This document shows, piece after piece, positions 39,184-59,223 of a DNA stretch of 64,000 bases (position 1 is the first letter of the stretch; every line of letters starts with the position of its first letter). A program made the position numbers and the translations under genes. Origin of the DNA: Spirochaetia bacterium (GTDB lineage Bacteria; Spirochaetota; Spirochaetia; DSM-2461); the NCBI GenBank assembly GCA_963668315.1, contig OY764216.1, positions 4,800,001 to 4,864,000 of the forward strand. Direction: 5' to 3'. The notes below the pieces were generated by a model. That model saw nothing but the letters and a program-made list of their open reading frames with translations. It was not told the origin of the DNA and did no database searches.

Positions 39184-39256
39184 CGCAGGGTGGAGCAGTT
39201 GGCAGCTCGTCGGGCTCATAACCCGAAGGCCGGAGGTTCGAGTCCTTCCCCTGCTA
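39184..39256 (+). tRNA. tRNA-Met(CAT), initiator type
   Basis: Cloverleaf; anticodon arm TCGGG-CTCATAA-CCCGA with three consecutive G-C pairs; unpaired 1:72; GGTTCGAGTCC T-arm; CCA not encoded. Confidence 0.95.
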
Positions 39257-39258
39257 AA
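39214..39258 (+). repeat. att core, copy 1 (tRNA 3' half)
   Basis: GCTCATAACCCGAAGGCCGGAGGTTCGAGTCCTTCCCCTGCTAAA. Confidence 0.95.
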
Positions 39259-39368
39259 TTATTAGTCCGAAAGGATTTAGTGAAAATTATTTTAATGAGT
39301 AACTACCGTAAAAACGGCGTTTATCATTAGTTGTCCTATGAAAAGTGTAGTAAACACTGGGAGAGACT

Positions 39369-40697
39369 ATGAAACGCCGTTTTTATTTTTATAACCGTGG
39401 TGTGAATAAGACCTGGTACGTGGCTATTCTTAATCCCAAAACGGGAGAAAGATTACCCGCCAGAAGTACTGGTACGTCTGATCGGGAAAAAGCCGAATAC
39501 CTTGCCAACAAATGGTATTACGAAGGAATTCCCAAGGAGAAGACTTCCGATCCTCGTTCGGTAAAAGAACTCTGTTCCGTTGATAAGATTCTATCTGACT
39601 TACGTTCAATCTCTCTACAAAATACCGATGTCCGTCGATTCCTCCGTTATTTCAAAGAAGAAGGTTTCATAAACGACATCAGCCTCAGAGGCAATTCCAA
39701 TGAAACCTTCTGTGATTTCCTTGCCCGAATCTGGGATTACGAGAACTCTCCCTATGTACGTGAAAAGAAAGCCCATGGACAAAGAGTCGGACAAACACGC
39801 TGTCGGGATTGTAGCGCAGCTCTGAATAATTATTGGATGCCCTACTTCCAAGATATTCCCATCTACGATATAACCCGTCAAAAGCTTAAAGATTTCTCCC
39901 TTACACTATCAGAGAAAGGACTGGCCGCCGCTACTATTAATAATATTATGGACGCCGGTTGCGTTCCCTTACGCTGGGCATATGCGAATGAATTGATTGA
40001 AACAGATCCGACTAGTGGTCTCATGCGATTTTCTGGTAAAAAGAAACGCCGTGGAATCCTATCCGTAGATGAAGCGGAGAAGCTTTTTTCAGAGGGAGAC
40101 TGGTATGGAAATGAGGGAGCCCGGCTGGGAAACCTTCTGGCCTATCAGACTGGATTAAGAGCGGGAGAGATTGTTTTCCTGAAGGTACGACACCTGGAAC
40201 AGGACCGTATCAAGATAGAAGGTTCCTTCTCTACTGTTGAAGGAGCCAAAGAGACAAAGACCCAGGAAAACCGGGAAGTTCCCCTACTCCCGGAGATGCG
40301 ACGAGCTCTTCTGAATCACGCCAAAAAGAGCCCTCACGGCTTCGGACCGGAAAACTGGATATTCTTTCAGGAAAGTGCAAAAGATCGTCCTATGAGGCAG
40401 GAAACGTTTAATAAAAGACTCAAGAAGGCTCTCTACAGTATTGGGATCAATGAAGTGGAAAGAAAGGAACGGAGTATCTCCTTCCATAGCTGGAGGCACC
40501 TCTTTGCTTATATTATTTCCAAAGAGCTGGATAAGAAAGTAATGCAGCTTACAGGGTGGAAAACGGAAGCTATGCTGGAAAATTACAGTATGCATAAAAC
40601 AGAGGCGGATTTCCAGAAAGCAGCAGAAGCAACGGGACGGATATTTTCGAATATCCTCCCCTTCTCCCATAAAGCGACTAAGGAGGCCACCGTATGA
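39369..40697 (+). CDS. Tyrosine integrase 1
   Basis: TGLRAGEI, TKT, FHSWRH, TGW...ENYS catalytic set. Confidence 0.95.
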   Translation: MKRRFYFYNRGVNKTWYVAILNPKTGERLPARSTGTSDREKAEYLANKWYYEGIPKEKTSDPRSVKELCSVDKILSDLRSISLQNTDVRRFLRYFKEEGFINDISLRGNSNETFCDFLARIWDYENSPYVREKKAHGQRVGQTRCRDCSAALNNYWMPYFQDIPIYDITRQKLKDFSLTLSEKGLAAATINNIMDAGCVPLRWAYANELIETDPTSGLMRFSGKKKRRGILSVDEAEKLFSEGDWYGNEGARLGNLLAYQTGLRAGEIVFLKVRHLEQDRIKIEGSFSTVEGAKETKTQENREVPLLPEMRRALLNHAKKSPHGFGPENWIFFQESAKDRPMRQETFNKRLKKALYSIGINEVERKERSISFHSWRHLFAYIISKELDKKVMQLTGWKTEAMLENYSMHKTEADFQKAAEATGRIFSNILPFSHKATKEATV

Positions 40698-41340
40698 TTG
40701 ATGAGATACCCCAGGATTTTGCGTTTAAGGAACAGACAACTCTAGAGAGCCTTGAGAATGGAATTAGGGCTATTGAGGGTAATGTAAAGGTTGGCCTTGC
40801 TATTATTGCCGTCAGCCTAGGACGGGTTCGGCGTGAAAAGCTTTATCTGTCGCTCTGCTCCGATTTCAAAACCTACTGCCGTATGGATCGATTTGATATG
40901 TCTTATAACAAGCTGTTACACCTCTCTATTATCGGGGAGAACTGGTGGAATCATCGGCAGGCGCTTCATGATCATAACATCAAACTATCGGAACATATGT
41001 CAAAAGTTCGGCTTCTTACGTCTGACTTGAACGAAACGATCCGGCGCTCTCCCCTTTTCTTTCAACGTTTTAAAGAGTTATCACATAGGGAGTTAAGGAT
41101 ATATTAAAAAAAAGATGTGACAACTTGAACGTTCGCGTTGAACGGGAAGATATCGGAGATGTGACCGCAACTCGGAAGGGATTATATATTGACGGGGTTA
41201 AAGTCCGCGGCTTGGATATGGATGAAGTCAGGGAGCAAATGGCAGCAGGAAAAAGAGCCGTAGTTATCTGGGTGAAGGATGATGGAGAGGCGCGAAAGAT
41301 CAGGAGATATATAAGGAACCGGCTTGACTTTTCTATTTAG
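40694..41340 (+). pseudogene. Frameshifted homologue of the integrase-partner gene at 60673-61314
   Basis: Two ORFs align to the N- and C-terminal parts of the element 2 protein; adding one A near 41095 gives RELKDILKKR versus RELKDFIEKRK. Confidence 0.8.
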
Positions 41341-41363
41341 GTGCAGTAATTACTATTTGCACG

Positions 41364-42341
41364 ATGCTTAAAAGATACAAGCTTGCAGATCCAGATGATC
41401 TCTATCGACAACACTTACGAGATAGCCTCAAAGAACGTCTTCCACAAGAAAGAAGAATGAATAGACATGGTAAGTTCTTCTGGGATTCCCCTAATAACAA
41501 TCACTATATTTCCCTTGATGAATTGATAGAGCCTGTCCCCAAAAAGGAACTGTTGGAATTCGAATATCAAAATTTCATGCTTAAAAAATATTTTCATCTA
41601 GATCAGGAAGATAAAGTCCTTCTAATTAACAGGAATATTCAAGCGGCAAAGGACTATTTACTTGATTTAAGGTTTGTCCTTTCATTTCGGGACTCTATTG
41701 ATAAAAAGGAAATCAGAGAAAAATACGAGACTCAACCGGAAGACGATATACTCCGCCTTCAAAAGGTTATGAATTTGCCTGGTGTTGAAGACTTCTATAA
41801 TGCCCTTAATATCCTACCTATGGGGGATGAATACAAAAGGATTCATCAATATATAATGGAAGGGGATTATTATTATTTCTTAAGCTTAGATTTCTTCGAC
41901 GATCTTTCGAAGTTTACCATCATTAATTACGATATTCTTCTCTATGAAGTCTTTAAAATTGATGGGATTCAACCGGAAGAGATAAAAGAGAATGAGTTTC
42001 TTTCAATTCTCAGAAAGCATGTAAGGCAAAAAAAAATGAAGGATGAGTTGAAATTTGACATCTATAAAATATTTAAAAAAGCAGTTGACGATGGACTTTT
42101 TATTCTAGAGGAAGACGATGAAGGCAACATCTATTATGACTTTCAGTTAGGAGTAGGTGCTGCTCGATGGTTCTTCTTTGATGGTGATTTTCATAATTGG
42201 ACAGATTGTACGAACTATGTTAAAAGCAAGGGTAGCAGCCTTCCAGGTACTTTCCGTAGTTCATGTAGTGCAAAGGAACCGAAAGAATATCTTCCAATAC
42301 GAGAAAAATACTTTCCAGAAATTGATAATTCCTTGGAATAA
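41364..42341 (+). CDS. Hypothetical protein (325 aa)
   Basis: Long ORF in AT-rich DNA; no recognised motif. Confidence 0.7.
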   Translation: MLKRYKLADPDDLYRQHLRDSLKERLPQERRMNRHGKFFWDSPNNNHYISLDELIEPVPKKELLEFEYQNFMLKKYFHLDQEDKVLLINRNIQAAKDYLLDLRFVLSFRDSIDKKEIREKYETQPEDDILRLQKVMNLPGVEDFYNALNILPMGDEYKRIHQYIMEGDYYYFLSLDFFDDLSKFTIINYDILLYEVFKIDGIQPEEIKENEFLSILRKHVRQKKMKDELKFDIYKIFKKAVDDGLFILEEDDEGNIYYDFQLGVGAARWFFFDGDFHNWTDCTNYVKSKGSSLPGTFRSSCSAKEPKEYLPIREKYFPEIDNSLE

Positions 42342-42448
42342 TTAAAAATACTACCGCATACTACAAAAAATACTACCTAACTGTATCTTACATATCGCAA
42401 ATAACCAGTTACATTGGATTCATCATTTTTATCCAATAGGAGCTGTTT

Positions 42449-42640
42449 ATGAGCAAGAAACTGTTTGCAACACCAAAAGAAGCCATGGAAAGGCTTTGTA
42501 TCAGTTATTCGACTTTTATCAGAAAGGTTAATGACAAGAGCATCCCATCTGTAAAGATCGGTAACCAGATCCGCATACCACTTTCATATTTCTCTGATCT
42601 GGAAGAAAAAGCTTATGGTAAAATCGGAGGTGACTGTTAA
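42449..42640 (+). CDS. Excisionase-like HTH DNA-binding protein
   Basis: TPKEAMERLCISYSTF...IPSVKIGNQIRIP; RBS AGGAG. Confidence 0.8.
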   Translation: MSKKLFATPKEAMERLCISYSTFIRKVNDKSIPSVKIGNQIRIPLSYFSDLEEKAYGKIGGDC

Positions 42641-42822
42641 TGAATGTCGAACGGTTGCTAGAAGAAATCAATAAGTCTTTTATGGAAGCCTTCACGTCTA
42701 TACCGGAATATGGAACCATCGGTTTCACCGTTCATCTCAGAGAACAGGAACCGGTACGGATTGAGTGGAGCGGAAGTATTTCACATAAGTTACCTCCTAA
42801 GGGGTTGAGGGAGGAAGCGTAA
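42640..42822 (+). CDS. Small hypothetical protein
   Basis: TAATG coupling to the upstream gene; RBS GGAGG. Confidence 0.65.
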   Translation: MNVERLLEEINKSFMEAFTSIPEYGTIGFTVHLREQEPVRIEWSGSISHKLPPKGLREEA

Positions 42823-43608
42823 TTGGCAAATCGTAGAATGTTTAGTAAAGCGATTCTAGATAGTGATCTTTTTTTTGATTTACCCTTTCCGACACAATCT
42901 CTCTATATCCAACTTAATATGAATGCAGATGATGATGGTTTCATAGGGTCACCCCAGAAAATTATCCGAATGGTTGGAGCAGACAAAGACGATATAAAAA
43001 AAATAGTAGATTGTGGGCTACTTATGGATTTCGATAATGGAATATATGCCGTTACACATTGGAACGTTCATAACCAAATCCGTAAAGACCGGCTTACCGA
43101 AACGATTTATCAAAGAGAAAAAGCCATGCTCAAAACTAAAAAGGATGGAACGTATACTTGGAAAAGACGACCAAATGACAACCACCCGTCAACCAACTGT
43201 CCTCCGAGTATAGAAAAGGACAGTTTAGGGGAATATAGTGGAAAAAGGACAGTATTAGAAAATTCTAATAAAGAATATATTAATAAAGAAAAGAATATGT
43301 ACTCCTCCGTAGATGTCCCAATAAACAATAGCAATCTATCTGAAATAACAGACCTCATCAAATTATGGAACTCGAAAAAGAATTTACCTCCTCAAAATGA
43401 GGATATATCTGAGGAAGAACTCGACTTATTATGGGACAATTTAGATTCATATTACATAGAAGAAATCAAAATCGCGATCAAGTATTACAGTTTTATGCTC
43501 GAAGACATCGAATCTAAGGGAGAGGAGATCTATGATGACTTAATCGAGTTCATGGAAAAAGGGCTTGAAAAATTCACTAAAGAGGATCTGCCATCTTTAC
43601 CCGATTAG
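42823..43608 (+). CDS. Phage replication initiator / replisome organiser-like protein
   Basis: N-terminus ANRRMFSK..DSD.F.DLP..TQ.LY..L.M.ADDDGF, then HW..HN.IRKDR. Confidence 0.75.
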   Translation: MANRRMFSKAILDSDLFFDLPFPTQSLYIQLNMNADDDGFIGSPQKIIRMVGADKDDIKKIVDCGLLMDFDNGIYAVTHWNVHNQIRKDRLTETIYQREKAMLKTKKDGTYTWKRRPNDNHPSTNCPPSIEKDSLGEYSGKRTVLENSNKEYINKEKNMYSSVDVPINNSNLSEITDLIKLWNSKKNLPPQNEDISEEELDLLWDNLDSYYIEEIKIAIKYYSFMLEDIESKGEEIYDDLIEFMEKGLEKFTKEDLPSLPD

Positions 43609-43730
43609 GATGTGGGACAATAGCTATTTTGGGACATATGCCCCATGACCTGTACCTCAGGGATAAATGTACTATTACTTAACGGAAAATTATTTTTTAA
43701 TAAATATACTTATATTGAATCCTTCAATTT

Positions 43731-44433
43731 TCAAATCCCCTCAAAGCTCCCCGCTTCCCGTTGCCATCCTGGTGCAGTAGATTTCCAGATTTCGTTCCTT
43801 ACCCTCAGGTCATCCAAGAAATCCTTTTCCAGAGAGGGATTTTTCAGTCCGACTTCGTAGCTGAGCTTGAAGAGACTCCCCATATTCGTCGTTCTAACGC
43901 CGGTCAGACGGGATTTTACCGTATACTGTGCGAAAAGATCATCAAAGGTATCCCGATAGTTCAGATCTTCCGGTATGGTAATAGTGAGCGTTCCCTCCCC
44001 ATCCATCCTGAAGATCTCCCCGAAATTTAGTTTCTCAAGGACAAACAGTCCCCTGATGATGATTCCGGCAAAGATCAGGGCAAAAATGAGATTTCCCGTA
44101 CCGCAGGTTAATCCCAAGGCCATGGAGATGAAGATAGCCATGATTTCACGGCCCGAGTCGGGGACCGAGCGAAAACGCACAAGGGGAGAAGGCTCCCACG
44201 ACGGGAACTCCTGCCCCCAGGGAGCCGTTAACCATCATGAATATGGCGCAGACTACGGGAGGCTGCATGGCTATTGTCAGGGCGAAGGATTTGGTAACGC
44301 TGCTCTTCAATTGAATGATCAGGGAGAAAGCGGTTCCCAGGAGAAGGGCCATGATAAGATTGACCGCATAGGACCCGAAGGATGCCAGGGCTGCCTGATT
44401 CGATTGTGTCAGCATTTCTGTTATTGTATTCAT
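43731..44433 (-). pseudogene. DUF4956 membrane protein pseudogene
   Basis: MMVNGSLGAG...RFRSVP...TIPEDLNY...TTNMGSLF; frameshifts near 44185 and 43790. Confidence 0.75.
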
Positions 44434-44716
44434 TTTGTTTTCCTTTTTTGATTTTTTCAGCAATGGAATCCAAATGAACTTGATACAGAAGCAATAACTC
44501 TATGCGACGTTCACCTTGAGATATTTAACGTTGCGGGGGAATTTTAAAAAAAGGCTCCATAACAGCTCCTTTGTAATTTTATTAATACGAAGATATGAAA
44601 ACATAGAAGATTGGATAGTATTGAACAGTCCTGAACGCTAATGTATACATATGAAACTTAACATTTGTAAAGTAATCGGTTTAATCTTTTTAATTTTTTA
44701 GTCTGAAGTAGATTCA

Positions 44717-44737
44717 TTGTTGCAATCAGCGCAACAA
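44717..44737. promoter_or_regulatory. Inverted-repeat operator candidate
   Basis: TTGTTGC-N7-GCAACAA upstream of the vasI-like/WYL/cas gene run. Confidence 0.4.
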
Positions 44738-44781
44738 AATGGGTTCAACATGGGATATGAGATAATTAAGGAGTGTCCCCT

Positions 44782-45363
44782 ATGAAAAGAATATTGGTTT
44801 TATTCATTCTATCCCTAACGCTGTTATCCGCCCAGGAAGTGACGAGGGATAAGGTTAACCAAATCTATCAAATCCAGGATGACTCGACCCGTCTGGCTTC
44901 TTTTGATCAATGGGCCAAATCCCTTGGTTTGGCAAGGACGAGTATTGAATCCTTAGGAAACTGGTTTGTGGAAGTTGATAGCGATCCTATTGATGATTCC
45001 AAAAAGATTGTTTTTTCCTGTCGTGCTTCGGAAGGAGGGAGTGCATATGATACTCCGACTATAATTATTCGTTGGCAAAATGGTGAATTGGACAGCTACA
45101 TTTATTGGGATGATTATCTGGCGGATAATAGCCAGGTGACATTACGTTTTGATTCTGAAGATGCTTATAAGGAAAGATGGAGTATGAGCACTAATAGCCA
45201 GGCTACTTTTTGTACTAATCCCCAGGCCTTCATCGACAAACTTCTAGTACATGATAGATTAGTTACAAGAATTACTCCTTACAATGAAGGTCCCACTACA
45301 CTTGTCTTTGATATCAGTGGATTAAGGGAAGAAAGCGATGTTTTTCCGGAGTTAGGGTGGTAA
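44782..45363 (+). CDS. Secreted VasI/TagO-like protein
   Basis: Signal peptide; I.DDSTRLASFD; W....DPIDDS; TPYNEGP....FDISGL. Confidence 0.6.
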   Translation: MKRILVLFILSLTLLSAQEVTRDKVNQIYQIQDDSTRLASFDQWAKSLGLARTSIESLGNWFVEVDSDPIDDSKKIVFSCRASEGGSAYDTPTIIIRWQNGELDSYIYWDDYLADNSQVTLRFDSEDAYKERWSMSTNSQATFCTNPQAFIDKLLVHDRLVTRITPYNEGPTTLVFDISGLREESDVFPELGW

Positions 45364-45366
45364 ACG

Positions 45367-45678
45367 ATGTGCCTCTCATGTGAGTGGTTTGATCAGGCTG
45401 ATGAACGGAAAAAGCAATGGGATAGAGAAGGGCTTTCGCTGGACGAAGCGGAGGAGTTGCTAAGTTACTATCATACGACCATATTTCCTGTTGCCTGTGA
45501 GGCTGCTGAATACATAGAAAAGAACTGGACTAGAGATCTGATCGAAAAACTAGACAATGAAAGACAATTGGCATTTCAGGAAATTAAGACAAAACATATT
45601 GATCGTGATTCTCTAGAGGATGAGAATTGGCAATCTGATACCTTAATTATTAAAATACAACTACTTACTGACAAATGA
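45367..45678 (+). CDS. Hypothetical protein (103 aa)
   Basis: ORF tightly packed between its neighbours. Confidence 0.6.
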   Translation: MCLSCEWFDQADERKKQWDREGLSLDEAEELLSYYHTTIFPVACEAAEYIEKNWTRDLIEKLDNERQLAFQEIKTKHIDRDSLEDENWQSDTLIIKIQLLTDK

Positions 45679-45715
45679 ACGAAACGGTTGTAAAATAGTG
45701 AAATAAGGAAAGAAT

Positions 45716-46660
45716 GTGAATAAGCCCGATCGAATTGAGCGGATGAAAAAGATAGAAGAAATCCTCCTGGAAAATAATAAGGGATGGAGTCGTTCAGAAT
45801 TAGCGCGACGGTTTGGAGTTGACCGCTCTACTCTCAAAAGGGATATTGACTATATATTTGAAAAAGATCTATTCCCGATCCGGATAGATGATAACAAAAT
45901 ATATTTGGAAAGCGATTCCTATGTCAGCAATATCCAGATGAACATGCACGAGATGCTGGCTCTTCATCTGGCGACTAGACTGTTGGTAAAAAAGAGCAGT
46001 TTCGCGTCACGTCATTATGCATCGCTCTTAAGAAAAATATCACAATCCTATGCCAATCACTCAGGATTGATCAGCCGGTATATGGCCGATACGGCGGACG
46101 GACTTGATGAACAGGAACAGACTAGGGAACAGCATCGTCGAAACGATAGGTTGGAAGTAATGAATCAAGCATGGACCCAACAGAAGAAGGTGAAGATCTA
46201 TTATCACAGTAAAATAGGGCGTAAGAGCTATGTCCTGGGGATCTATTGCTTTGAACCTTATTCAGAGGGACTTTCTTTACATGTAGTAGGGCTGTGCAAC
46301 GAGGAGGATCATACTCGTAATTTTAAATTCGAGCGGATTGAGTCGGTGAAGATATTGAATGAGAGGTATGAGATCCCAGATAAATTCCGACCCCATGAAT
46401 ACTTTAGGGATGCTTGGGGAATTTGGACCACAGGTAAGGAGCCTGTAACTGTAAAGCTTAAGTTTGATAAGTCTGTAGCGGGACGAGTGAAAGAGAATCG
46501 GTGGCATGTTTCGGATTCGATTGAGATGCAGGTTGATGGTTCCTTGATCTGGACGGCGAGAGTGGCAGAGCCGACTGAGATGTTGCCTTGGATTCGGGGT
46601 TGGGGGGACCAGGTTGAGGTTTTGAAACCCATGGGGCTCCTGAATTATGGGGGGGATTGA
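45716..46660 (+). CDS. HTH-WYL-WCX transcriptional regulator
   Basis: N-terminal HTH (ELARRFGVDRSTLKRDI), RNFKFERI, WIRGWGDQVEVLKP. Confidence 0.9.
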   Translation: MNKPDRIERMKKIEEILLENNKGWSRSELARRFGVDRSTLKRDIDYIFEKDLFPIRIDDNKIYLESDSYVSNIQMNMHEMLALHLATRLLVKKSSFASRHYASLLRKISQSYANHSGLISRYMADTADGLDEQEQTREQHRRNDRLEVMNQAWTQQKKVKIYYHSKIGRKSYVLGIYCFEPYSEGLSLHVVGLCNEEDHTRNFKFERIESVKILNERYEIPDKFRPHEYFRDAWGIWTTGKEPVTVKLKFDKSVAGRVKENRWHVSDSIEMQVDGSLIWTARVAEPTEMLPWIRGWGDQVEVLKPMGLLNYGGD

Positions 46661-48895
46661 ATGGGAAAGTATATTGCTCATGTTAAGGAAAGCGATGGGG
46701 AGTGGAGCGTTCAGTCTCTGCGGGATCATCTTAAAAATGTCGCTGAAATAGCTTCCGATTTTGCCAAGTCCTTCTCTAATGACGACTGGGTGCGAGCCGC
46801 CGGAATCCTTCACGACATTGGTAAGAGCAGTAAGGAGTGGCAGGAATACATTTCCAATAGGAGCGGTTATTCGGATGCTCCCGTTACGGAAACCTCTTTT
46901 GGTAAAGTAACCCACTCTACTCATGGCGCGGCATGGGCATTCAAGGAATGGCCTGACATTGGAAAAGTAATAGCCTATCTGATTGCCGGACATCACGGCG
47001 GGCTACCCGATTGGTTCCATGAAATGAGAGTGGGTGGAGGCTTGGAACATCGGCTAAAGAAAGAGGAGATCGATAAACTTCCTGAAGTAGCTGAGGATAT
47101 TACCGATTATGTGAATCATCACTTGAAAAAACCTAATAGCCTTCCCTGCGATAGTCAACTTGAATCAGAGCAGATTCATCTTTGGATCAGAATGCTTTAC
47201 TCCTGTTTGGTTGACGCCGATTTTCTTGATACGGAAGAGTTTATGAATCCTGAAAACGGAAGTCTAAGAAACGGATATCTTTCAATAAATGAACTGAAAA
47301 GCCAGTTCGATGCCTATATGGATTCTCTCAAAAAAGATTCAAGATTATCCCAGGTAAATAACATTAGAGAGGAGATTTTGAGTCAGTGTAGAAAGACCGC
47401 AGAAGAGACTCCCGGCTTGTTTTCCCTAACCGTACCAACCGGAGGAGGAAAAACACTCTCCTCCATGGCATTCGCCCTTGACCATGCGTTGAAACACCGG
47501 AAAGACCGTATCATTATGGTTATCCCCTACACCAGCATCATCGAACAGACGGCAGAGGTGTATAAAAGAATATTCGGAATAGAGAATGTTCTCGAACACC
47601 ACTCCTCTTTGGATCCTTCTGAGGAAACACAAAGAAGCCGCTTGGCCTCTGAAAACTGGGATGCCCCCATCATCGTCACAACAAGCGTACGTTTCTTTGA
47701 ATCCCTTTTTGCAGCTAAACCATCGTCTTGCAGAAGACTTCACAACATCGTGAACAGCGTAGTAATTCTTGATGAGGCTCAAATGCTTCCTACTAATTAT
47801 CTGAAACCCATTCTTTACAGTATCAAAGGATTGATTTCACTTTTTAAGGTGACCATGGTCTTATGTACGGCAACTCAGCCAGCCATTAGGGACAAGATAT
47901 TTACAAAGGGCAATGGCGAACACTATTCTCTGTTGGATGATATACCCTGTCGGGAGATGATGGTAAAGCCGACGCCCCTGGAGCTGACAAGTAAACTGCA
48001 GCGTGTCACGATCGAAACCTTGGAAAAGCCAATCTCTGATTGGTACGAGGTGGCAGAAAAACTTACCTGTTTTCACTCAGTACTATGCGTCGTTAATACC
48101 AGGAAAGATTGCCGCGAACTTTTTGAACTCATGCCTGAAGGGACGCTACATCTCTCGGCCAATATGTGCGGAGAACACAGAAGCGAAACGATTGATCTGA
48201 TCAAGCAACGATTGGAAAGGAATGAGTCGGTGCGAGTTATCAGCACACAGCTGGTAGAGGCGGGAGTCGATTTTGATTTTCCCGTGGTATTTCGCGCCAT
48301 GGCGGGTTTTGATTCCATAGCCCAGGCGGCCGGACGTTGCAACAGAGAAGGATTGTTACCGGAGAAGGGCAAGGTTTTTGTATTTGAACCGCCAAATCAA
48401 CCGCCCGCAGGCAGTTTGCGTAAGGGTGCTCAAACGGGTCGGGAAATTTTATCGGTGGATTCGGAAGGATGTCGCGATCTATTGCCGGATACAGTGAAAC
48501 GGTACTTTCAGCTCTATTACTCGGGACTTCTGACCTTTGATTCCAAAGAAATTGTTGATCTTTTATCATCCAATGTCCATCCCGATTTAAACATCCAGTT
48601 TAGAACGGCGGCAGAAAGGTTCCGGATGATTGATGATCAGTATCAGCAATCGGTTGTTATCTGGTATGAAGGAGAGAAAGCCAACAGTTTTGACTTAATT
48701 GATGAACTTAGAAGATTTGGTCCTAAAAGGGAAATAATGCGAAAACTGCAACGTTTCACCATTACTATTCCTAAGTATGTGTTTGAAGAAATTCAAGATT
48801 CATTTGAATCGATTCACGATATCTGGTGTCAATATACAGATTCTGCTTATGACGAGGTCCTGGGCTTTGTTGATAATACATCATCCGTGTTATGA
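46661..48895 (+). CDS. cas3: Cas3 HD nuclease-helicase
   Basis: LHDIGK, GHHGGL, LVDADFLDT, PTGGGKT, ILDEAQ, QAAGRCNR. Confidence 0.97.
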   Translation: MGKYIAHVKESDGEWSVQSLRDHLKNVAEIASDFAKSFSNDDWVRAAGILHDIGKSSKEWQEYISNRSGYSDAPVTETSFGKVTHSTHGAAWAFKEWPDIGKVIAYLIAGHHGGLPDWFHEMRVGGGLEHRLKKEEIDKLPEVAEDITDYVNHHLKKPNSLPCDSQLESEQIHLWIRMLYSCLVDADFLDTEEFMNPENGSLRNGYLSINELKSQFDAYMDSLKKDSRLSQVNNIREEILSQCRKTAEETPGLFSLTVPTGGGKTLSSMAFALDHALKHRKDRIIMVIPYTSIIEQTAEVYKRIFGIENVLEHHSSLDPSEETQRSRLASENWDAPIIVTTSVRFFESLFAAKPSSCRRLHNIVNSVVILDEAQMLPTNYLKPILYSIKGLISLFKVTMVLCTATQPAIRDKIFTKGNGEHYSLLDDIPCREMMVKPTPLELTSKLQRVTIETLEKPISDWYEVAEKLTCFHSVLCVVNTRKDCRELFELMPEGTLHLSANMCGEHRSETIDLIKQRLERNESVRVISTQLVEAGVDFDFPVVFRAMAGFDSIAQAAGRCNREGLLPEKGKVFVFEPPNQPPAGSLRKGAQTGREILSVDSEGCRDLLPDTVKRYFQLYYSGLLTFDSKEIVDLLSSNVHPDLNIQFRTAAERFRMIDDQYQQSVVIWYEGEKANSFDLIDELRRFGPKREIMRKLQRFTITIPKYVFEEIQDSFESIHDIWCQYTDSAYDEVLGFVDNTSSVL

Positions 48896-48906
48896 AAGGA
48901 GGAGAA

Positions 48907-49569: not shown

Positions 49570-51503
49570 TATTGCATTCTTTAGTTGAGTATTACGATAG
49601 GAAGGCGGAGCTTGGTGAGATTGCGCCCCTGGGATTTGAAGAGAAACTTATTCCTTTCATCATTAAGATTGATAGGGAGGGAAAGTTTAAGGATCTTATT
49701 GATACACGAGGGCTTGTTGGGAAAAAGCTTGTTGCAAAACCATTTTTAGTTCCCAATGCTTTATCTAGATCGGGATCAAATTCCTGGATGACAACTTTCT
49801 TGTTATGGGATCACACAGGGTTCATTTTAGGTCATGCAAAAGGAGATAGCCCCAAGGATAGAAAAAAAAGACATGATCTTTTTTTGACTCTATCCGAAGC
49901 AGAAAGCTTTGGGGAGATATCAAGCAGCCAACTCCTTGAAAAACTTTCACCAACTGCGATCGATAAGATTTTAACAACCATTAATCAGTCTGAATCAAAA
50001 ATCGGAAAAGACCTTATAAGAAACCTTACAGCACTACGCAAAGCTGTTACTGATGGAGATAAGCAGTTGGGAACTTTTATCGCCTCTTTGGATAAACTCC
50101 CCAAACCACTACAAGAGAAATCTGAAATCAGAGCTATAAAGAGATTCTATGAATCAGGAGAACATCTGAAAGTATTCCAACATGAACGATGGGCTGATTG
50201 TGCCGGAATTGCAAATGCCAATCTTACCTTTCAACTCGAAGGAGAAACGGAGATAGTGGCAAGAGATCCGGATATCGTTATTTACCAGAAGGAATTGTCT
50301 TCAATGCCCGAAACGGAGGATGAGACTCCTTCGCTCTGTCTGATTACAGGAGAAAAAGATTATATTGAGAGGATTCACAACTCGACACCTATCCGAGGAG
50401 GTCAAGCCACGGGAAAACTCGTCGGTTTTCAGACGAATTCCGGCTTTGATTCCTATGGCAGGGAGCAATCCTTTAATGCACCGATTGGAAAAATAGCTCA
50501 ATTCGCCTATTCCACCGCACTAAACACTCTTATTAAAAGCCCTAAGAATCATGTCAATATTGGAGACACGACCATTATCTTTTGGTCTGAAAAGGGCCAC
50601 TCCCTTGAAGAAGACATCCCTTTCATTCTCTCAAAATCCAAAGATGAACCAGATCGGAACGTACAAGCGGTTAAGCAGTTGTATGAGAGTATTTCCTCAG
50701 GAAAGTTTAGCACAGAAAACCAACAACGGTTTTATGTCTTAGGATTGGCTCCCAATGCCGCCCGGGTAAGCGTCAGATATTGGATAACAGGAACGGTTGA
50801 TAAGTTTGCCTACCATATCAAGCAACACTACGATGATTTGGAGATTGTCCGGGGAAAAGAGGACAGAGAATTCTTTGCGCTCAACACACTGTTGTCTCAT
50901 ACGGTACTGGACTACAAACTGGATAATATTGCTCCCAACTTAGCCGGACAGGTGACGGAAGCGATTATGAGAAATATCCCCTATCCCAAATCTCTTCAAC
51001 ACTCGACAATCCGCCGTATCAGAGCAGAGCAACATATAACCAGAGTGCGCGCCGCTATCTTGAAAGCATGCATCAATCGATTTAACAGATTTTACAATAA
51101 AACAGAGGAGGATATATCAGTGGCATTGGATGTTAACAACACGAATCCAGCCTATCGCCTGGGAAGGTTGTTCGCCGTTTTGGAAAATCTTCAAAGCAGA
51201 GCCTTGAATGTAGAAACGATACGCGAAAGGTACTATGGAGCTTTTTCCAGTACTCCGGTAACGGTGTTTCCCCAATTGATGAAATTGAGGAACCACCATT
51301 TGGCAAAGCTCGAAGGATGGCAGAAATACTACTTTGAGAAGCTAATCGGCGAGATTCTGGATGGTCTTGACGGAAGCGGCGATATACCCCGCCAGCTTAA
51401 TTTGGACGAGCAGGGACGATTTGCCATAGGCTATTATCACCAGCGACAGGATATCTTCAAATCAAAGGATAAAGAATCAGATAAGGAGGTAAAGAATGAT
51501 TAA
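49566..51503 (+). CDS. cas8c: Cas8c/Csd1
   Basis: [49 protein letters not shown]. Confidence 0.95.
51120..51503 (+). CDS. cas11: Cas11 small subunit from an internal in-frame start in cas8c
   Basis: GAGGAGG SD 8 nt before an in-frame GTG; internal Cas11 translation is established for type I-C. Confidence 0.7.
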
Positions 51504-52404
51504 GAATAGGTACGATTTTATTATGTTTTTTGATGTTCAGGACGGCAATCCCAACGGTGATCCGGATGCGGGCAACTTGCCCCGCATTGATGCGGAAACC
51601 GGAAAAGGGCTGGTCACAGACGTATGCCTGAAACGAAAAGTAAGAAACTATGTCCAGCTATCCAAAGCTGAATCTCAAGGTTACCGCATTTTCGTAAAGG
51701 AAAAAGCGATTCTGAATGATCTCATTGAGAAAAAATACGATGAAATCGGTATAGATTTAAGCGCAACCCCTAAAAACTCTGAAGACGGGAAAAAGAGGAA
51801 TAAGGACGGCAAGGCCCAGGGAGGTGAAGTGGAACAAGGAAGACAAGCCATGTGTTCCGACTTCTTTGACATTCGTGCGTTTGGTGCTGTTATGAGTACC
51901 GGACCCAATGCTGGTCAAGTTCGCGGTCCCATACAGATAACCTTTGGCCGTTCCGTTGATCCTATTGTCACTCTTGAGCACAGCATTACCCGTATGGCCG
52001 TTGCCACAAAGGAGGAGGCGGAAAAACAGAGCGGAGACAATCGCACCATGGGGAGGAAATTCACCGTGCCCTATGGCTTGTATAGAGCCCATGGATTTAT
52101 CTCAGCCAATCTAGCGGAGCAGACAGGATTTTCCGATGACGATTTGAATCTCTTCTGGGAAGCCCTTCAGGGAATGTTTGATCATGATCATTCGGCAGCG
52201 CGCGGCTTGATGGCTATGCGAAAAGTCATAATATTCAAACATGATTCTCCCCTGGGTAACGCATCGGCCCATAAACTCTTCGAATTGATCCCCAATCCTG
52301 ATCTTATAGATGAGAAGATGCCGCCTAGAGCCTTTTCTGATTATGAGGAGATAACCATACCCGGTTCATTACCGGAAAATGTAACGATGACAGTTCTTGA
52401 ATAA
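51496..52404 (+). CDS. cas7c: Cas7c/Csd2
   Basis: [39 protein letters not shown]. Confidence 0.97.
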
Positions 52405-52420
52405 AGCGAAAGGAACTCCT

Positions 52421-52795
52421 ATGTCCGATCAAATAGCTATATTTCAAGGAAAGCAAATCAGAAAAATCATCTACCAGAACGAATGGTGGTTTTCAGTTTT
52501 CGATATAAGCGCCATTCTTACAGAAAGTAAGAATCCCTGGGCTTATTGGAGAAAATTGAAACAAATACTCATTGCTAAAGGTAGTGAACCGGTGACAATT
52601 TGTCACCGGTTGAAATTGCTTGCATCGGATGAGAAGCAAAAAACAATAGACTATGCCAATATGGAGGGAACATTTCGTATCATCCAACCAATATCCTTAC
52701 CAAAGGCCAAACCGTTTAAGCGACGGCTGGCCAAGGTAAGGTATGATTGGATCAAAGAAATCCCTAAAGAAGTACAAAGAAAGCAACTGGAGTGA
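52421..52795 (+). CDS. Bro-N-like DNA-binding protein, short and possibly degenerate
   Basis: IAIFQGKQIRK....EWWFSV.DI..ILT....AYWRKLK...PKAKPFK. Confidence 0.65.
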   Translation: MSDQIAIFQGKQIRKIIYQNEWWFSVFDISAILTESKNPWAYWRKLKQILIAKGSEPVTICHRLKLLASDEKQKTIDYANMEGTFRIIQPISLPKAKPFKRRLAKVRYDWIKEIPKEVQRKQLE

Positions 52796-52798
52796 AAT

Positions 52799-53437
52799 AT
52801 GCCCTATTCAGAATCAGACTGCTACATGTTATCAGCATTACAACATTATGCTTTCTGTCCCAGACAGTGCGCTTTAATCCATAAAGAGCAAATTTGGACT
52901 GACAATTACCTTACGACTAAGGGTGATCTATTTCACGAACGGGTTGATTTCTATAAAAGAGAATCCAGAAAGGATTTTCACAGAGAATTCTCTCTTCCTA
53001 TCCGATCTTTGATTTTAGGACTTTCTGGCAGAACCGATATTGTAGAGATCTACTATCTGAATGGAAAAATCAGACAGGTGATACCTATAGAGTATAAATC
53101 GGGAAAGAAAAAAATTGACACCCTTGATGAAGTGCAACTATGCGCCCAGGCAATTTGTCTGGAAGAGATGATGAAAGTGAAGATTGCTAATGGATATCTC
53201 TATTATGGGAAAGATAAGAGAAGACATGAAGTACAACTTACTGCTGAACTTAGGGATGAAACGTCCGATCTGGCAAGTCAGCTTCATAGCATGATGTCCC
53301 GGGATTCATTACCTTCTCCTGTATTTGATAAAAGGTGCAAAGCCTGTTCTCTCTACGACTACTGTCAACCGGAAATTATTGCAAAAAGATCAATAAGCAG
53401 GTATATGAAAAAAGCTTTGACCGATGAGGATATATGA
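52799..53437 (+). CDS. cas4: Cas4
   Basis: LQHYAFCPRQ, D..EYK, QLCAQ, C-terminal CKACSL..YC. Confidence 0.95.
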   Translation: MPYSESDCYMLSALQHYAFCPRQCALIHKEQIWTDNYLTTKGDLFHERVDFYKRESRKDFHREFSLPIRSLILGLSGRTDIVEIYYLNGKIRQVIPIEYKSGKKKIDTLDEVQLCAQAICLEEMMKVKIANGYLYYGKDKRRHEVQLTAELRDETSDLASQLHSMMSRDSLPSPVFDKRCKACSLYDYCQPEIIAKRSISRYMKKALTDEDI

Positions 53438-54465
53438 AGAAAATATTCAATACTCTCTTTATTACAACCCAGGGGACTTACTTATCAAAAGAAAGAGAAA
53501 CTGTTGCTGTTCATCTTGAAGATGATAAAACAATCCGGTTCCCCTTTCATAACCTAGATGGAATTGTCTGTTTTGGTAATATCAGATTAAGTCCATGGTT
53601 AATTGGCGCCTGCGGAGAAAAAGGTATTACCGTCAGCTTCTTAAATGAAAACGGAAAGTATCTGGGACGCTTCATAGGGACCGTTTCAGGCAATGTTCTA
53701 CTTAGACGTCAGCAATACAGAGTTGCCGACACCGATTCACAAAGATCAAAGATCGCGGCAAACATGGTTATTGGAAAGATAGCCAATACCCGGACTTGCC
53801 TTGAACGATTTTCCAGGGACCATCCGGATAACCCGGGTTATGAACATGTGAAAGAGGTTTCCAGAAAGCTTAAAAAAATTATTGTTCGACTGGAAAAAAG
53901 TGACTCAGTCGATTCGATAAGAGGCATGGAGGGAGAAGCGGGGGCACTCTACTTCTCAATATTCGATCATTTGATTTTGAAGCAGAAAGAAGGATTTCAA
54001 TTTTCAGGACGGAACCGAAGGCCACCTCTCGATTCAATCAATGCCTTGTTATCATTCATCTATACTCTACTCCATCATGACCTAACATCGGCCTGTGAAG
54101 CAACAGGCCTTGATCCGGCCGTTGGTTTGCTTCATGTAGATCGTCCGGGAAGAAACAGTCTAGCCCTGGATCTCATGGAGGAATTCAGAAGCTTTATGGC
54201 AGATAGGTTAGCCCTTTCTCTTATCAATCGCCAACAGATCACTCCAGATGATTTCCAAAAACATGCCAGTGGAGCCATCTATATAAATGACAAAGCAAAG
54301 AAAGTAGTTATTGATGCCTGGCAAAGCAGAAAAAAAGAAACATTGCAACATCCGTTCATTGGTGAGAAAACGACGATAGGAGCCTTGTTCTTCTATCAAG
54401 CACTTCTACTTTGCCGCCATTTACGAGGGGATCTCGAAGCCTACCCACCCTTTCTTTGGAGGTAA
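53434..54465 (+). CDS. cas1: Cas1
   Basis: GNVLLRRQQY, RGMEG, RNRRPP.D..NALLS, LALDLMEEFR. Confidence 0.97.
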   Translation: MKKIFNTLFITTQGTYLSKERETVAVHLEDDKTIRFPFHNLDGIVCFGNIRLSPWLIGACGEKGITVSFLNENGKYLGRFIGTVSGNVLLRRQQYRVADTDSQRSKIAANMVIGKIANTRTCLERFSRDHPDNPGYEHVKEVSRKLKKIIVRLEKSDSVDSIRGMEGEAGALYFSIFDHLILKQKEGFQFSGRNRRPPLDSINALLSFIYTLLHHDLTSACEATGLDPAVGLLHVDRPGRNSLALDLMEEFRSFMADRLALSLINRQQITPDDFQKHASGAIYINDKAKKVVIDAWQSRKKETLQHPFIGEKTTIGALFFYQALLLCRHLRGDLEAYPPFLWR

Positions 54466-54466
54466 T

Positions 54467-54757
54467 ATGCTTGTATTGGTAAGTTATGATGTCTCAACAG
54501 AGGCACAAGATGGGAAGAGACGACTGAGACATATTGCAAAAATCTGTGAAGATTACGGCCAACGCGTTCAATATTCCGTTTTCGAATGTCTGGTTGATCC
54601 ATCACAGTGGGCACAACTGAAGCGCAAACTTGAAAAAAAGATTAATCCCAAAACAGATAGTCTCCGCTTTTACAAGCTGGGTTCCAATTGGAAGAATCGT
54701 GTTGAACACATAGGCGCAAAACCCTCATATGACCCGGAGGGATCATTGATTCTTTAA
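54467..54757 (+). CDS. cas2: Cas2
   Basis: LVSYDV, GQRVQYSVFEC, DSLRFY. Confidence 0.97.
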   Translation: MLVLVSYDVSTEAQDGKRRLRHIAKICEDYGQRVQYSVFECLVDPSQWAQLKRKLEKKINPKTDSLRFYKLGSNWKNRVEHIGAKPSYDPEGSLIL

Positions 54758-54932
54758 TTGCGAACCTTTGATAAGCAGAACTAGCCAAAGCATTCGCACT
54801 ATTTTTATTCTTTTTCTAAAAATAACTTAGTATGTATGATCTTTGAAAAATAAGAGAAGGATTTAGATTCTACCCCGGTTCGCGAAATTGTATACATAAA
54901 TCGTTTGAGATATATTGTTTATTGCAAAAGCA
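54758..54932 (+). promoter_or_regulatory. CRISPR leader
   Basis: AT-rich; GCGAAC (54760), TTCGC (54793) and GGTTCGCGAA (54877) motifs typical of I-C leaders. Confidence 0.75.
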
Positions 54933-57900
54933 GTCGCTCCCCTCGCGGGGGCGTGGATTGAAACATGACCTGGCTTTAGGGCTGGCGGGAGTTGAACCGT
55001 CGCTCCCCTCGCGGGGGCGTGGATTGAAACTCTTTCTCCTCGATCCGTCCCACAAGGTCACCTTGTCGCTCCCCTCGCGGGGGCGTGGATTGAAACAATG
55101 CATGAAGAGATCAGAAATACTTTTAGTAGGTCGCTCCCCTCGCGGGGGCGTGGATTGAAACTCTTCACCGGAATTTGCAGCAACCCCTGGGAACGTCGCT
55201 CCCCTCGCGGGGGCGTGGATTGAAACGCATCTCTTGGCTGTAGAAGAGAGTTTGCCAAATGTCGCTCCCCTCGCGGGGGCGTGGATTGAAACTCGGACAT
55301 AGAACAGTTTGTGCAGTCGAGATTGAGTCGCTCCCCTCGCGGGGGCGTGGATTGAAACAAATCCTACCATGTCTTTTAAGTGCATCGTAAGAGTCGCTCC
55401 CCTCGCGGGGGCGTGGATTGAAACATGTTTTCGACATTATCCATATCGAATTTAAAACCGTCGCTCCCCTCGCGGGGGCGTGGATTGAAACCGTTGAATT
55501 ATCAGACCTTACTGGAAATCAACATGTCGCTCCCCTCGCGGGGGCGTGGATTGAAACCTCATGGTGGTATGATACTGCCGATTATATTCTGTGTCGCTCC
55601 CCTCGCGGGGGCGTGGATTGAAACTGCCATAAAGGATTTTTTCTCCGGGAAAGAATCGTGTCGCTCCCCTCGCGGGGGCGTGGATTGAAACTCAATCCTG
55701 GTCACTTTATCAAGCCAGTTTTCCAGGTCGCTCCCCTCGCGGGGGCGTGGATTGAAACCTACCGTTGATAAAAGATTAGAGTTCTGCACCGTGTCGCTCC
55801 CCTCGCGGGGGCGTGGATTGAAACTCTTAACATTAGCCGTCACCGTCACCGTCACCGGGTCGCTCCCCTCGCGGGGGCGTGGATTGAAACGATCAACTAG
55901 ATCATATGGATTGGGAAGATATAAAGTCGCTCCCCTCGCGGGGGCGTGGATTGAAACTCTTCGACGCTCGCGAGGTTGCCCTCGGTTTTGAGGTCGCTCC
56001 CCTCGCGGGGGCGTGGATTGAAACAATTGGGGCGAGAAGTAACGTTGACGCGCTAAATGTCGCTCCCCTCGCGGGGGCGTGGATTGAAACTTTTAAGCCG
56101 TCAGACAATGCGTCTTGCTCTACTGTCGCTCCCCTCGCGGGGGCGTGGATTGAAACACTGACGTCTAGGGAAAGAGAGAACCAATTCTCCGTCGCTCCCC
56201 TCGCGGGGGCGTGGATTGAAACAGATACGACAGAAGAACGTCGAGCGCGGCAAGGCCGTCGCTCCCCTCGCGGGGGCGTGGATTGAAACTCGCCGTACCG
56301 GTCAAGGTAAGCCTGAAGAACGGCGTCGCTCCCCTCGCGGGGGCGTGGATTGAAACTCATAACATAATAAGATAAAACATAATCATATTAAGTCGCTCCC
56401 CTCGCGGGGGCGTGGATTGAAACTGAACAGTGCCTATTGCATTTATGAGGGTAAAAAGTCGCTCCCCTCGCGGGGGCGTGGATTGAAACCGAACGTCGTC
56501 GGTCTTTACTGTCAGACCAGAGAGTCGCTCCCCTCGCGGGGGCGTGGATTGAAACCACCACCACCAACATCCTCCACTGTCCATGAGCCGTCGCTCCCCT
56601 CGCGGGGGCGTGGATTGAAACTTACGCGCTCCGGGTCGCCTCCGTAATATCCAAGGTCGCTCCCCTCGCGGGGGCGTGGATTGAAACAAATCCTACCATG
56701 TCTTTTAAGTGCATCGTAAGAGTCGCTCCCCTCGCGGGGGCGTGGATTGAAACAAAAAATTCAGGGGTGACCTTTACCTTATCCTCGTCGCTCCCCTCGC
56801 GGGGGCGTGGATTGAAACTCATAATCATAATCTTTTCCCAATGCGAGAATTTGTCGCTCCCCTCGCGGGGGCGTGGATTGAAACCGAAAACCCGGATCGG
56901 AAATATGGATCACTTTCAAGTCGCTCCCCTCGCGGGGGCGTGGATTGAAACTTGGAGGGGGCGGGCCATCAATACCGACTTTAAAGTCGCTCCCCTCGCG
57001 GGGGCGTGGATTGAAACCCGAGGTTGAGGATATGCAAATTTATGGTGTAGGTCGCTCCCCTCGCGGGGGCGTGGATTGAAACTTGGAATAGCAAGTCCAG
57101 CATGCATATCCAACACGTCGCTCCCCTCGCGGGGGCGTGGATTGAAACTGGTCTGTGTGCAAGCATTAAATATAGGCCAACGTCGCTCCCCTCGCGGGGG
57201 CGTGGATTGAAACGTCAAGAGAGAATCAAACTCTACTTGCTTGTATAGTCGCTCCCCTCGCGGGGGCGTGGATTGAAACATTATCAAATCCGTAGCCACT
57301 GTCGGAATTGGCACGTCGCTCCCCTCGCGGGGGCGTGGATTGAAACTCGTCTATGGCACCGCCACGGGCAAGCGTATCAAGTCGCTCCCCTCGCGGGGGC
57401 GTGGATTGAAACAACCCTATTCTGGCCCATAAACCAAATTTTAAGAGTCGCTCCCCTCGCGGGGGCGTGGATTGAAACTCTGGGCCGTGAATAATGGGTA
57501 TGGGACGGTTTCGGGTCGCTCCCCTCGCGGGGGCGTGGATTGAAACTTGGAATAGCAAGTCCAGCATGCATATCCAACACGTCGCTCCCCTCGCGGGGGC
57601 GTGGATTGAAACAGGGATAGGCACACGGGCTATCCCGACGAACGGGGTCGCTCCCCTCGCGGGGGCGTGGATTGAAACGGTTTTTCGGTTGTGTTTTTCC
57701 ATCCACAAACTGGTCGCTCCCCTCGCGGGGGCGTGGATTGAAACTATATGCACCTTAGTGCCTCCTTTGTCCCCTTCCGTCGCTCCCCTCGCGGGGGCGT
57801 GGATTGAAACTGACAGTGTTATTGTCCCAGACGCCTTACGGGATGGTCGCTCCCCTCGCGGGGGCGTGGATTGAAACTCTATGGTCCTTAATGCTCCCAT

Positions 57901-58940
57901 TCCGAGGAGAGGTCGCTCCCCTCGCGGGGGCGTGGATTGAAACTTGACATAGATGTTGACACAAAATCCTGTGAAAAGTCGCTCCCCTCGCGGGGGCGTG
58001 GATTGAAACAAAGTGGTCACGGTGATATTAAATGTCACCTCAGGTCGCTCCCCTCGCGGGGGCGTGGATTGAAACATCAGCCTGGTTTCGTCGGAAAGAT
58101 TCCAAAACAGTCGCTCCCCTCGCGGGGGCGTGGATTGAAACCTCTTAGCCTAGTGCCTCTTTATCTAGAGCATTGATGTCGCTCCCCTCGCGGGGGCGTG
58201 GATTGAAACTCACTCATCGTCTTATCCTCCATAACTCAACACCGTCGCTCCCCTCGCGGGGGCGTGGATTGAAACAATGGACTGGTTGAAACGGGTAGGG
58301 AAAGGTCTTGTCGCTCCCCTCGCGGGGGCGTGGATTGAAACACGATGCAGACAAAACAGAATATGAAAATTGAGAGTCGCTCCCCTCGCGGGGGCGTGGA
58401 TTGAAACGCTATCGCCTTTCCGTCGAGAGTAAGTGTAACGTGTCGCTCCCCTCGCGGGGGCGTGGATTGAAACGTATCATCTTTTGTCACAACTTTGCTA
58501 GCTAACGTGTCGCTCCCCTCGCGGGGGCGTGGATTGAAACTCTGATAAATACACTTTATCTTGCTATCCTGTAGGTCGCTCCCCTCGCGGGGGCGTGGAT
58601 TGAAACCTCTTAGCCTAGTGCCTCTTTATCTAGAGCATTGATGTCGCTCCCCTCGCGGGGGCGTGGATTGAAACACGATGCAGACAAAACAGAATATGAA
58701 AATTGAGAGTCGCTCCCCTCGCGGGGGCGTGGATTGAAACTATTTGAGATTTTTCCAGAATGGCGTAATTATGAGTCGCTCCCCTCGCGGGGGCGTGGAT
58801 TGAAACTTATTGTGAGAGTTAGAACCGCTCCCGCGCTATGTCGCTCCCCTCGCGGGGGCGTGGATTGAAACAACCGTTGATGTTACTCTGGAAAACGAGT
58901 CCCTGAAAGTCGCTCCCCTCGCGGGGGCGTGGAATGCTTT
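54933..58940 (+). CRISPR. Type I-C CRISPR array: 61 repeats (last degenerate) and 60 spacers of 33-37 bp
   Basis: 32-bp repeat GTCGCTCCCCTCGCGGGGGCGTGGATTGAAAC, counted by eye; terminal copy ends GGAATGCTTT. Confidence 0.98.
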
Positions 58941-59098
58941 CTCTCTTTTCAGTAAGTACTCCCATATTCACCAAGTAATAGTAAGAAGATATTATCGTTT
59001 TTTACTTGTACTACTGTCCTATGAAATGTGTAGTAAAACCCCTGAATCAATAAGAATAAAGCTGAATAAGAATAATGAAAATAGACAATTTTCAACCA

Positions 59099-59127
59099 TT
59101 GACAACTGATACTTTACTTGCTATCCT
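59099..59127 (+). promoter_or_regulatory. Promoter in the right arm of element 1, facing the att site
   Basis: TTGACA-N17-TATCCT with an extended -10 TG. Confidence 0.5.
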
Positions 59128-59178
59128 ATAACAAATTAAAAGCACATATGACATCAAATGATAAATAAACGGTTATGC

Positions 59179-59223
59179 GCTCATAACCCGAAGGCCGGAG
59201 GTTCGAGTCCTTCCCCTGCTAAA
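59179..59223 (+). repeat. att core, copy 2 (junction of elements 1 and 2)
   Basis: Identical to 39214-39258; the 5' half of the tRNA is absent. Confidence 0.95.

Follow-up and report, generated by a model that had tools for sequence, protein, structure and literature searches.

Complete CRISPR-Cas systems have been found as cargo of genomic islands in Vibrio, where excision was shown for both GI-24 (type I-E, 17 kb) and VPI-6 (type I-F, about 29 kb) and where V. vulnificus carries a 25-kb I-F island at tRNA-Met (PMC6360697). In Pseudomonas aeruginosa, systems of type I-C with spacers against phages reside on conjugative elements of about 100 kb (integrative and conjugative elements, ICEs), and a CRISPR-versus-prophage tandem occupies the tmRNA site in Acinetobacter. 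Gene-poor defence islands of Pseudomonas, the intY islands, are transduced by a jumbo phage, and their transfer was shown (PMC12595487). The tycheposons of Prochlorococcus are tRNA-targeting elements of 10 to 20 kb with an integrase, xis, and swappable replication modules; their family holds cargo shuttles together with members that bear capsid and small terminase (terS) genes and resemble phage-inducible chromosomal islands (PICIs), and it builds genomic islands (10.1101/2020.12.28.424599). In this work, we analyzed a 64,000-nt window of a Spirochaetia bacterium genome (GenBank assembly GCA_963668315.1, contig OY764216.1, positions 4,800,001 to 4,864,000), in which an island at window positions 39214–59223 carries a complete CRISPR-Cas system of type I-C. 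Unprefixed coordinates are window positions, and features lie on the + strand unless indicated otherwise.

The island shares with the Vibrio islands an integrase, attL and attR sites, low GC content, complete CRISPR-Cas cargo, and a non–self-mobilizing character. It differs from them in its type I-C system accompanied by WYL and Bro-N genes, its spirochaete host, its core of xis, orf60, and a phage initiator, and its backbone, which is linked to PICI-like elements; excision, demonstrated for GI-24 and VPI-6, is predicted for this island. Like the ICEs of P. aeruginosa, it is a mobile-type carrier of type I-C with phage spacers, but no conjugation gene was found in it. With intY islands it has in common direct repeats, a tyrosine integrase, defence cargo, and the lack of genes for autonomous transfer, while intY islands use a tmRNA site and carry restriction-modification cargo, and transfer was shown for them only. 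We give an even chance to the reading that the island is a cargo-type member of a satellite-related family, which would be moved passively and provide its host with WYL-regulated adaptive immunity. The original prediction had called the locus a mobile immune system: horizontal acquisition, the inability to transfer itself, and possession of its own adaptation genes held up, its helper dependence, excision, and packaging stay predictions, and the Vibrio precedent (PMC6360697) makes the concept less new than proposed.

The island measures 19,965 bp between two att cores, attL (39214–39258) and attR (59179–59223), which are identical at 45/45 positions; the 5.62-Mb genome contains the exact 45-mer only at these two places, which are where the original prediction had put it. 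attL overlaps the 3′ part of a tRNA-Met(CAT) gene (39184–39256), the integration target, whose left flank is syntenic in three of three congeners. We take this tRNA to be the initiator from the C1:A72 pair and the GGG/CCC anticodon stem in its sequence. attR doubles as the left end of the next, tandem element. One copy of a 23-bp repeat lies inside each island end (39332–39354 and 59015–59037); the copies are alike at 22 of 23 positions, have no counterpart elsewhere in the genome, and are conserved in the congener G003. This repeat is a putative arm-type binding site of the integrase. With 0.405 to 0.435, the GC content of the island is below that of the left flank (0.551) and that of the genome (0.513). 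Assembled contigs were available from four runs (two samples of one study, possibly the source of the assembly); contigs of three runs from one sample, maybe the source sample, reproduced positions 39235–54932 without difference.

As predicted, the cas genes follow the order cas3-5-8-7-4-1-2, and all seven of this type I-C set scored above the NCBIfam cut-offs: cas3 with its HD and helicase models (46661–48895), cas5c (48892–49569), cas8c (49566–51503), cas7c (51496–52404), cas4 (52799–53437), cas1c (53434–54465), and cas2 (54467–54757). The cas1c gene is the sole cas1 match in the genome, and no cas6 was found among the element open reading frames (ORFs) scanned. A Bro-N domain gene (52397–52795) is inserted in the operon between cas7 and cas4. 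A probable AT-rich leader (54758–54932), whose orientation is backed by the TTC flank of the spacer 6 protospacer, precedes the array (54933–58935). The array has 61 repeats, i.e., 60 full 32-bp copies and a degenerate last one, and ends ~243 bp before attR; the prediction of 60 spacers ending about 240 bp from the right att was thus accurate. The spacers are 33 to 37 bp long, and 56 are unique; the duplicated pairs (7/27, 33/40, 49/56, and 52/57) suggest recombination within the array. By its genes, repeat, leader, and protospacer adjacent motif (PAM), the module is of type I-C, and it is predicted to be active in both interference and adaptation.

To judge from the congeners, the cas locus is not vertically inherited at the tRNA-Met site. 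Neither cas8c nor cas1 was found in any of the three congeners (0/3 each), so the opposing possibility, cas genes passed down at this site in relatives that lack the mobile core, was not what the genomes held. The assemblies are 96, 80, and 90% complete and represent congeners rather than conspecific strains. After the tRNA, G001 carries a terminator-like stem along with transposase and transporter genes. G003 has a counterpart of the left island end (85% over 644 bp), accompanied by a broken integrase and a DUF2971 gene. On another contig, it has one of the right end (81% over 207 bp), including the arm site; the content inside is different, and the CRISPR repeat was not matched in the ~800 bp inside this right end. 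On these matches, G003 retains the two ends of this element lineage but no cas genes.

Of the 37 other family genomes, 8 have type I-C systems; seven of these loci were examined, and neither an island-integrase match nor a tRNA was found in the stretches read. A Cas8c tree (a quick one of 28 rows, with G013 and G051 left out) rejected a single family clade (p-AU 0.003); four of the six family members were further from the island than rows named Desulfotignum, Desulfobacter, and Fibrobacteraceae. A Cas8c with 84% identity, encoded on a contig of up to 20,201 bp, might belong to a second copy of the element. A Cas8c search of metagenome contigs and a single-protein integrase search of genome contigs returned nothing.

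Spacer 6 (55293–55326) matches a phage contig of a congener (G001:C47:72629) at 32 of 34 positions, and the protospacer is flanked by 5′ TTC. This trinucleotide is the type I-C PAM. The protospacer lies within a DNA methyltransferase gene adjoining large terminase (terL) and portal genes, and reversed-spacer controls gave no match at up to 9 mismatches in 531 kb. The claim that the island CRISPR has met phages of the host genus is thus supported by one spacer with a TTC flank. The target contig (L286–L290) is an 84-kb phage-like sequence in the congener’s assembly; besides terL and portal, it carries three tRNAs and a DarB-like domain. For the remaining 55 unique spacers, no target turned up in what was searched: comparison with phages gave nothing convincing (best non-array E value of 4), matches among the 15 of 33 plasmid records listed resemble repeat arrays, and no match at up to 8 mismatches was found in 281 loci or in the own genome, i.e., there was no self-target. 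A 19-nt stretch of spacer 6 had no exact match in viral contigs. Two further candidates were set aside. Spacer 30 agrees with two viral loci over 19 nt but does not match them along its whole length; spacer 3 matches G001:C47 with 9 mismatches at a site that lacks TTC.

The left part of the island holds the backbone, in which an integrase, an excisionase-like helix-turn-helix (HTH) gene, and a phage initiator had been predicted; Pfam, TIGR01764/HTH_17, and phrog_5708 matches bear this out. The 442-residue tyrosine integrase (39369–40697; Pfam Phage_integrase) keeps R264, K294/K297, H373, R376, W397, and Y406 in an intact-looking frame, and almost all of its named relatives belong to Spirochaetota, which points to a spirochaete as the likely host. 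It is followed by an integrase-partner gene (40694–41340) that is split into ORFs of 137 amino acids (40694–41107) and 71 amino acids (41125–41340). Since the contigs of three runs match this region exactly, the split is present in the data. The partner gene is whole (202 to 213 amino acids) in three sibling elements of the same genome; its predicted model is confident (mean predicted local distance difference test score of 90), with no match in the PDB and weak phage matches. Members of this ~210–amino acid family (an intact copy lies at 60673–61314) also stand directly after tRNAs without an integrase match in some genomes (L234 and L238). A 325–amino acid gene (41364–42341) has a weak homolog at the same position in a sibling element (26%, E = 4e-5). 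The xis gene (42449–42640) encodes an AlpA-like HTH_17 protein (TIGR01764, 32.9 bits with a cut-off of 28.8; HTH_17, 30.5 with a cut-off of 27) that is probably a recombination directionality factor; coupled to it is orf60, a small conserved backbone gene of 60 codons (42640–42822). Next comes a phage-type DnaD-like replication initiator, Rep, of 261 amino acids (42823–43608; phrog_5708, E = 1e-52), with no helicase or loader partner beside it. The int, xis, orf60, and rep frames are all open.

Between the backbone and the cas genes lie a split remnant of a DUF4956 gene (43731–44463, − strand; a weak match below the cut-off), a decayed passenger; a gene for a 196–amino acid protein with a hydrophobic N terminus (44773–45363; phrog_1848); a 103–amino acid orphan ORF that matched no family (45367–45678); and an HTH-WYL-WCX regulator gene abutting cas3 (45716–46660). 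WYL regulators beside defence systems are known (PMC9122601). A 60%-identical WYL paralogue (L184:10340-18647) heads another cluster, of helicase, HATPase, aminotransferase-V, and DUF4007 genes. The numbers of promoters and terminators counted were those expected by chance. The arm repeat, the split partner gene, the 325–amino acid gene, orf60, the DUF4956 remnant, the WYL and Bro-N genes, and the tandem element add to what the original prediction had described.

The integrase profile matched 53 of 401 genomes of the class, and a tRNA was present at 62 of the 80 genome integrase loci kept, nearly always just upstream. The orf60 profile matched 23 of 401. The xis-orf60 pair also occurs in G001, G050, and G042, where the genes downstream of it differ, namely a Rep that is weakly Phage_CRI-like, then terS in G050, and Bro-N in G042. 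Twenty relative stretches were taken (17 by orf60 and 3 by integrase score), of which 14 were annotated and 15 compared with the island. Pairs of att sites were found in 4 of the 20, at distances of 9.4, 11.1, 11.1, and 11.3 kb. Among the 14 annotated stretches, terS was present in four, a major capsid gene in three, a head protease gene in five, terL with portal in one, a relaxase gene in one, and WYL with bacteriophage exclusion (BREX) genes in one; five had no hallmark beyond the core. L266:9970-19377 carries DUF3631, protease, capsid, HNH, and terS without terL or portal; L285:380-11519 carries a primase-helicase and terS, and its integrase is nearest to the island’s (42%); L273:8011-19157 and L277:8389-19727 combine a primase or AAA gene with protease or capsid. 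These four PICI-like elements, complete at 9 to 11 kb and located in the genomes of other spirochaetes, are candidates for the first described spirochaete satellite family. L268:480-10500 is a compact int-orf60-terS-terL-portal-protease-capsid-adaptor array resembling capsid-forming PICIs (cf-PICIs), with no tail match in the part scanned. The remaining hallmarks are terS, WYL, and BREX genes in L278, the relaxase gene in L269, a primase and a protease gene in L272, and DUF3631 in L276. In another spirochaete family, loci L187, L188, and L190 combine a small integrase with a short DnaD-like Rep and an invertase, two of them beside tRNA-Ala.

Sibling elements in the same genome are located at tRNA-Pro, tRNA-Gly, a second tRNA-Met, and directly after attR. 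The second tRNA-Met sibling has the order int-partner-[OLD-TOPRIM ATPase; cyclic oligonucleotide–based antiphage signaling system (CBASS): SMODS, E1/E2, JAB, SAVED]-xis-orf60-Lin1244_N Rep; its xis and orf60 are 48 and 51% identical to those of the island, and its Rep is different. As to other cargo on the same core, which the original prediction had proposed to look for in related genomes, the backbone was found with BREX, capsid/terS, or relaxase genes in other spirochaetes and with CBASS in the same genome, and congeners have CRISPR-free tRNA sites. The second tRNA-Met sibling forms a 125-kb att-bounded island (G000:C1:4524001-4649123) whose further content includes AEP-TOTE and numerous genes of metabolism; among its ORFs scanned, nothing matched conjugation or capsid genes. 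The tandem element occupies window positions 59179–64000 and L001 (genome 4859179–about 4875000); its integrase is 41% identical to the island’s, its partner gene is intact, it carries a RecT/Gam/SSB/DUF6573 module and SIR2-HerA, and it is ended by nested insertion sequence copies with no att copy downstream. Because a 50-bp att copy and the arm repeat of the tandem element were found 271 kb upstream, inside another island (G000:C1:4587373-4587941, L004/L005) and beside a native-looking post-tRNA terminator, the data suggest that this second element was split by rearrangement. The att-bounded island at tRNA-Pro (113 kb, G000:C1:3335538-3448636) holds an RHS-repeat protein gene, two ORFs of ~2700 to 2850 amino acids, genes for a type II secretion–like secretin and ATPase, and pairs of DnaG-like primase and integrase genes.

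In agreement with the original prediction, no capsid, tail, terminase, relaxase, or type IV secretion system (T4SS) match was found among the element ORFs scanned. A six-frame search of the island with proteins of relatives returned only xis, orf60, Rep, and WYL as credible, with no trace of terS or capsid, and a search aimed at terS (a PHROG scan and six-frame phmmer with five terS proteins of relatives and one candidate) gave a best E value of 0.15. Genome-wide, there was no credible terL, no type IV coupling protein (T4CP; PF02534), and no MOBP relaxase (PF03432), the only MOB family searched at this scale; 14 structural or relaxase proteins of relatives had no match in the genome either. 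A weak terL match was dismissed; we take the gene, by its sequence, to be PhoH-like.

Compared to described mobile element classes, the island has several features of an integrative and excisive genomic island: an integrase with attL and attR, a putative directionality factor (TIGR01764), and absence from congeners at the site; excision to a circle would be expected of it. A relaxase, T4CP, or T4SS, which would mark an ICE or an integrative and mobilizable element (IME), was not found in the searches made. Like PICIs and cf-PICIs (PMC10085698), the island has an integrase, a putative HTH regulator, and a replication gene in this order; unlike them, it is 20 kb long and lacks terS, a capsid morphogenesis gene, and a primase-replicase. 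Its regulator is of the HTH_17/xis type, with no AlpA, MerR, or Stl family match. Because the island has no packaging gene, one of its backbone genes is split, and no resident helper was found, it does not belong to the PICIs. Its relatives come closer, with four or five PICI-like components in L266 and L285 and terS, terL, portal, protease, and capsid in L268. With PICMIs (phage-inducible chromosomal minimalist islands; PMC10803314), the island shares int, an HTH_17/AlpA gene, a replication gene, the lack of capsid genes, and defence cargo after the replication gene, and it differs in having a DnaD-like initiator instead of a DUF3987/DUF5906 primase, a tRNA instead of a fis site, and a length of 20 instead of about 6 kb. 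Tycheposons resemble the island family in organization, the feature compared, which is an analogy rather than membership; they inhabit another phylum and carry nutrient cargo, whereas the cargo here is defence.

Since its core genes are common to phage parasite–like spirochaete elements, the island probably shuttles defence genes and relies on outside help to move. Its site-specific integration, which rebuilt the tRNA, is shown by the two att cores, the arm repeats, and congener sites free of CRISPR. Within this element lineage, the cas module was either captured or lost, as the ends and gene content of G003 show. If the island is such a passively moved cargo element, spacers would have been acquired from phages of the genus, in line with the one TTC-flanked spacer, and would direct interference; WYL may control cas expression, Int and Xis may excise the island, and Rep may drive its copying. 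Because the island has no packaging gene of its own, transfer would proceed as passive cargo in a phage particle or vesicle. Several observations weigh against this view. The partner gene is split, the DUF4956 passenger is decayed, and the integrase of the G003 copy is broken. The link to PICI-like elements rests on short genes (xis, 36 to 46% identity; orf60, 37 to 53%), the integrases of the PICI-like relatives are 25 to 42% identical, and inner tree branches are unstarred. The Cas8c tree is quick and has long branches, a target was found for 1 of 56 unique spacers only, and contigs of all four runs break at the att cores, with no excision, circle, or transfer observed. The island cas genes were matched in 0 of 15 relative stretches and 0 of 125 integrase loci, many of which are incomplete; a second element that unites this backbone with cas genes was thus not among the sequences read, and joint movement of CRISPR and element stays a prediction.

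Some of these observations would also fit a domesticated relic, i.e., an element that arrived once, captured cas on site, and is now effectively immobile and kept for immunity, a reading we regard as possible if on the unlikely side. The split partner gene and the DUF4956 remnant, the missing packaging genes, the broken or rearranged neighbouring family members in the same genome, the long 60-spacer array, which fits long residence, and the failure to find a second CRISPR-carrying copy all point that way; 100% identical att cores, two intact arm sites, and open int, xis, orf60, and rep frames speak against it, and the partner gene appears dispensable in the family (1/80 integrase loci) and is split in other genomes too. 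A bolder proposal, that spirochaetes harbour a so far undescribed satellite family whose PICI-like, capsid-forming, and cargo members share one int-xis-orf60 backbone and in which the island swapped phage-hijacking genes for a complete CRISPR-Cas, continues to travel in phage particles, and delivers an immune system whose memory is already directed at phages of the genus, seems unlikely. That the island is a PICMI-style satellite, excised and replicated upon infection, packaged at 20 kb by a helper terminase, and using CRISPR to kill competitors, is quite improbable: int, the HTH_17 regulator, and Rep stand in satellite gene order, PICMIs have no capsid-remodelling genes and bear defence cargo beside the primase (PMC10803314), the nearest of the 18 integrases compared belongs to an 11.1-kb element with primase and terS, and a phage of the host genus with terL and portal exists, but a primase-helicase, terS, and capsid are absent, the length of 20 kb doubles the PICI median (9.5 kb), no resident prophage terminase was found, and the only phage matched is one that the CRISPR targets, not a helper that it spares. 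We attach very little probability to conjugative mobilization as an IME with oriT only, for which the relaxase of one backbone relative (L269) speaks, since the element has no relaxase match and the genome lacks PF02534 and PF03432 matches. Equally little falls to a prophage that lost its late genes by deletion and has CRISPR in their place: the integrase family is found in 45 viral loci and the initiator lies near terminase genes in three of six relative contexts scanned, but no structural remnant was detected in six frames, and the int-X-xis-orf60-rep order is common to complete 9- to 11-kb elements without terL and portal.

A CRISPR system on an excisable tRNA-type island has its precedent in Vibrio; the satellite-like spirochaete family, in which replication, packaging, and defence modules can be swapped, is the newer part and apparently undescribed. 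The literature searched, which covered few subscription journals and no supplements, held no account of spirochaete phage satellites, and the main text of PMC10085698 does not name spirochaetes, while its supplements could list such elements. The island provides a specific vehicle by which entire adaptive CRISPR-Cas systems could spread in a patchy manner, and this vehicle is tied to phage satellite–like elements in a phylum where literature searches found none described. One backbone that carries CRISPR, CBASS, BREX, capsid/terS, or relaxase genes would offer a testable model of how satellites may give rise to defence islands.

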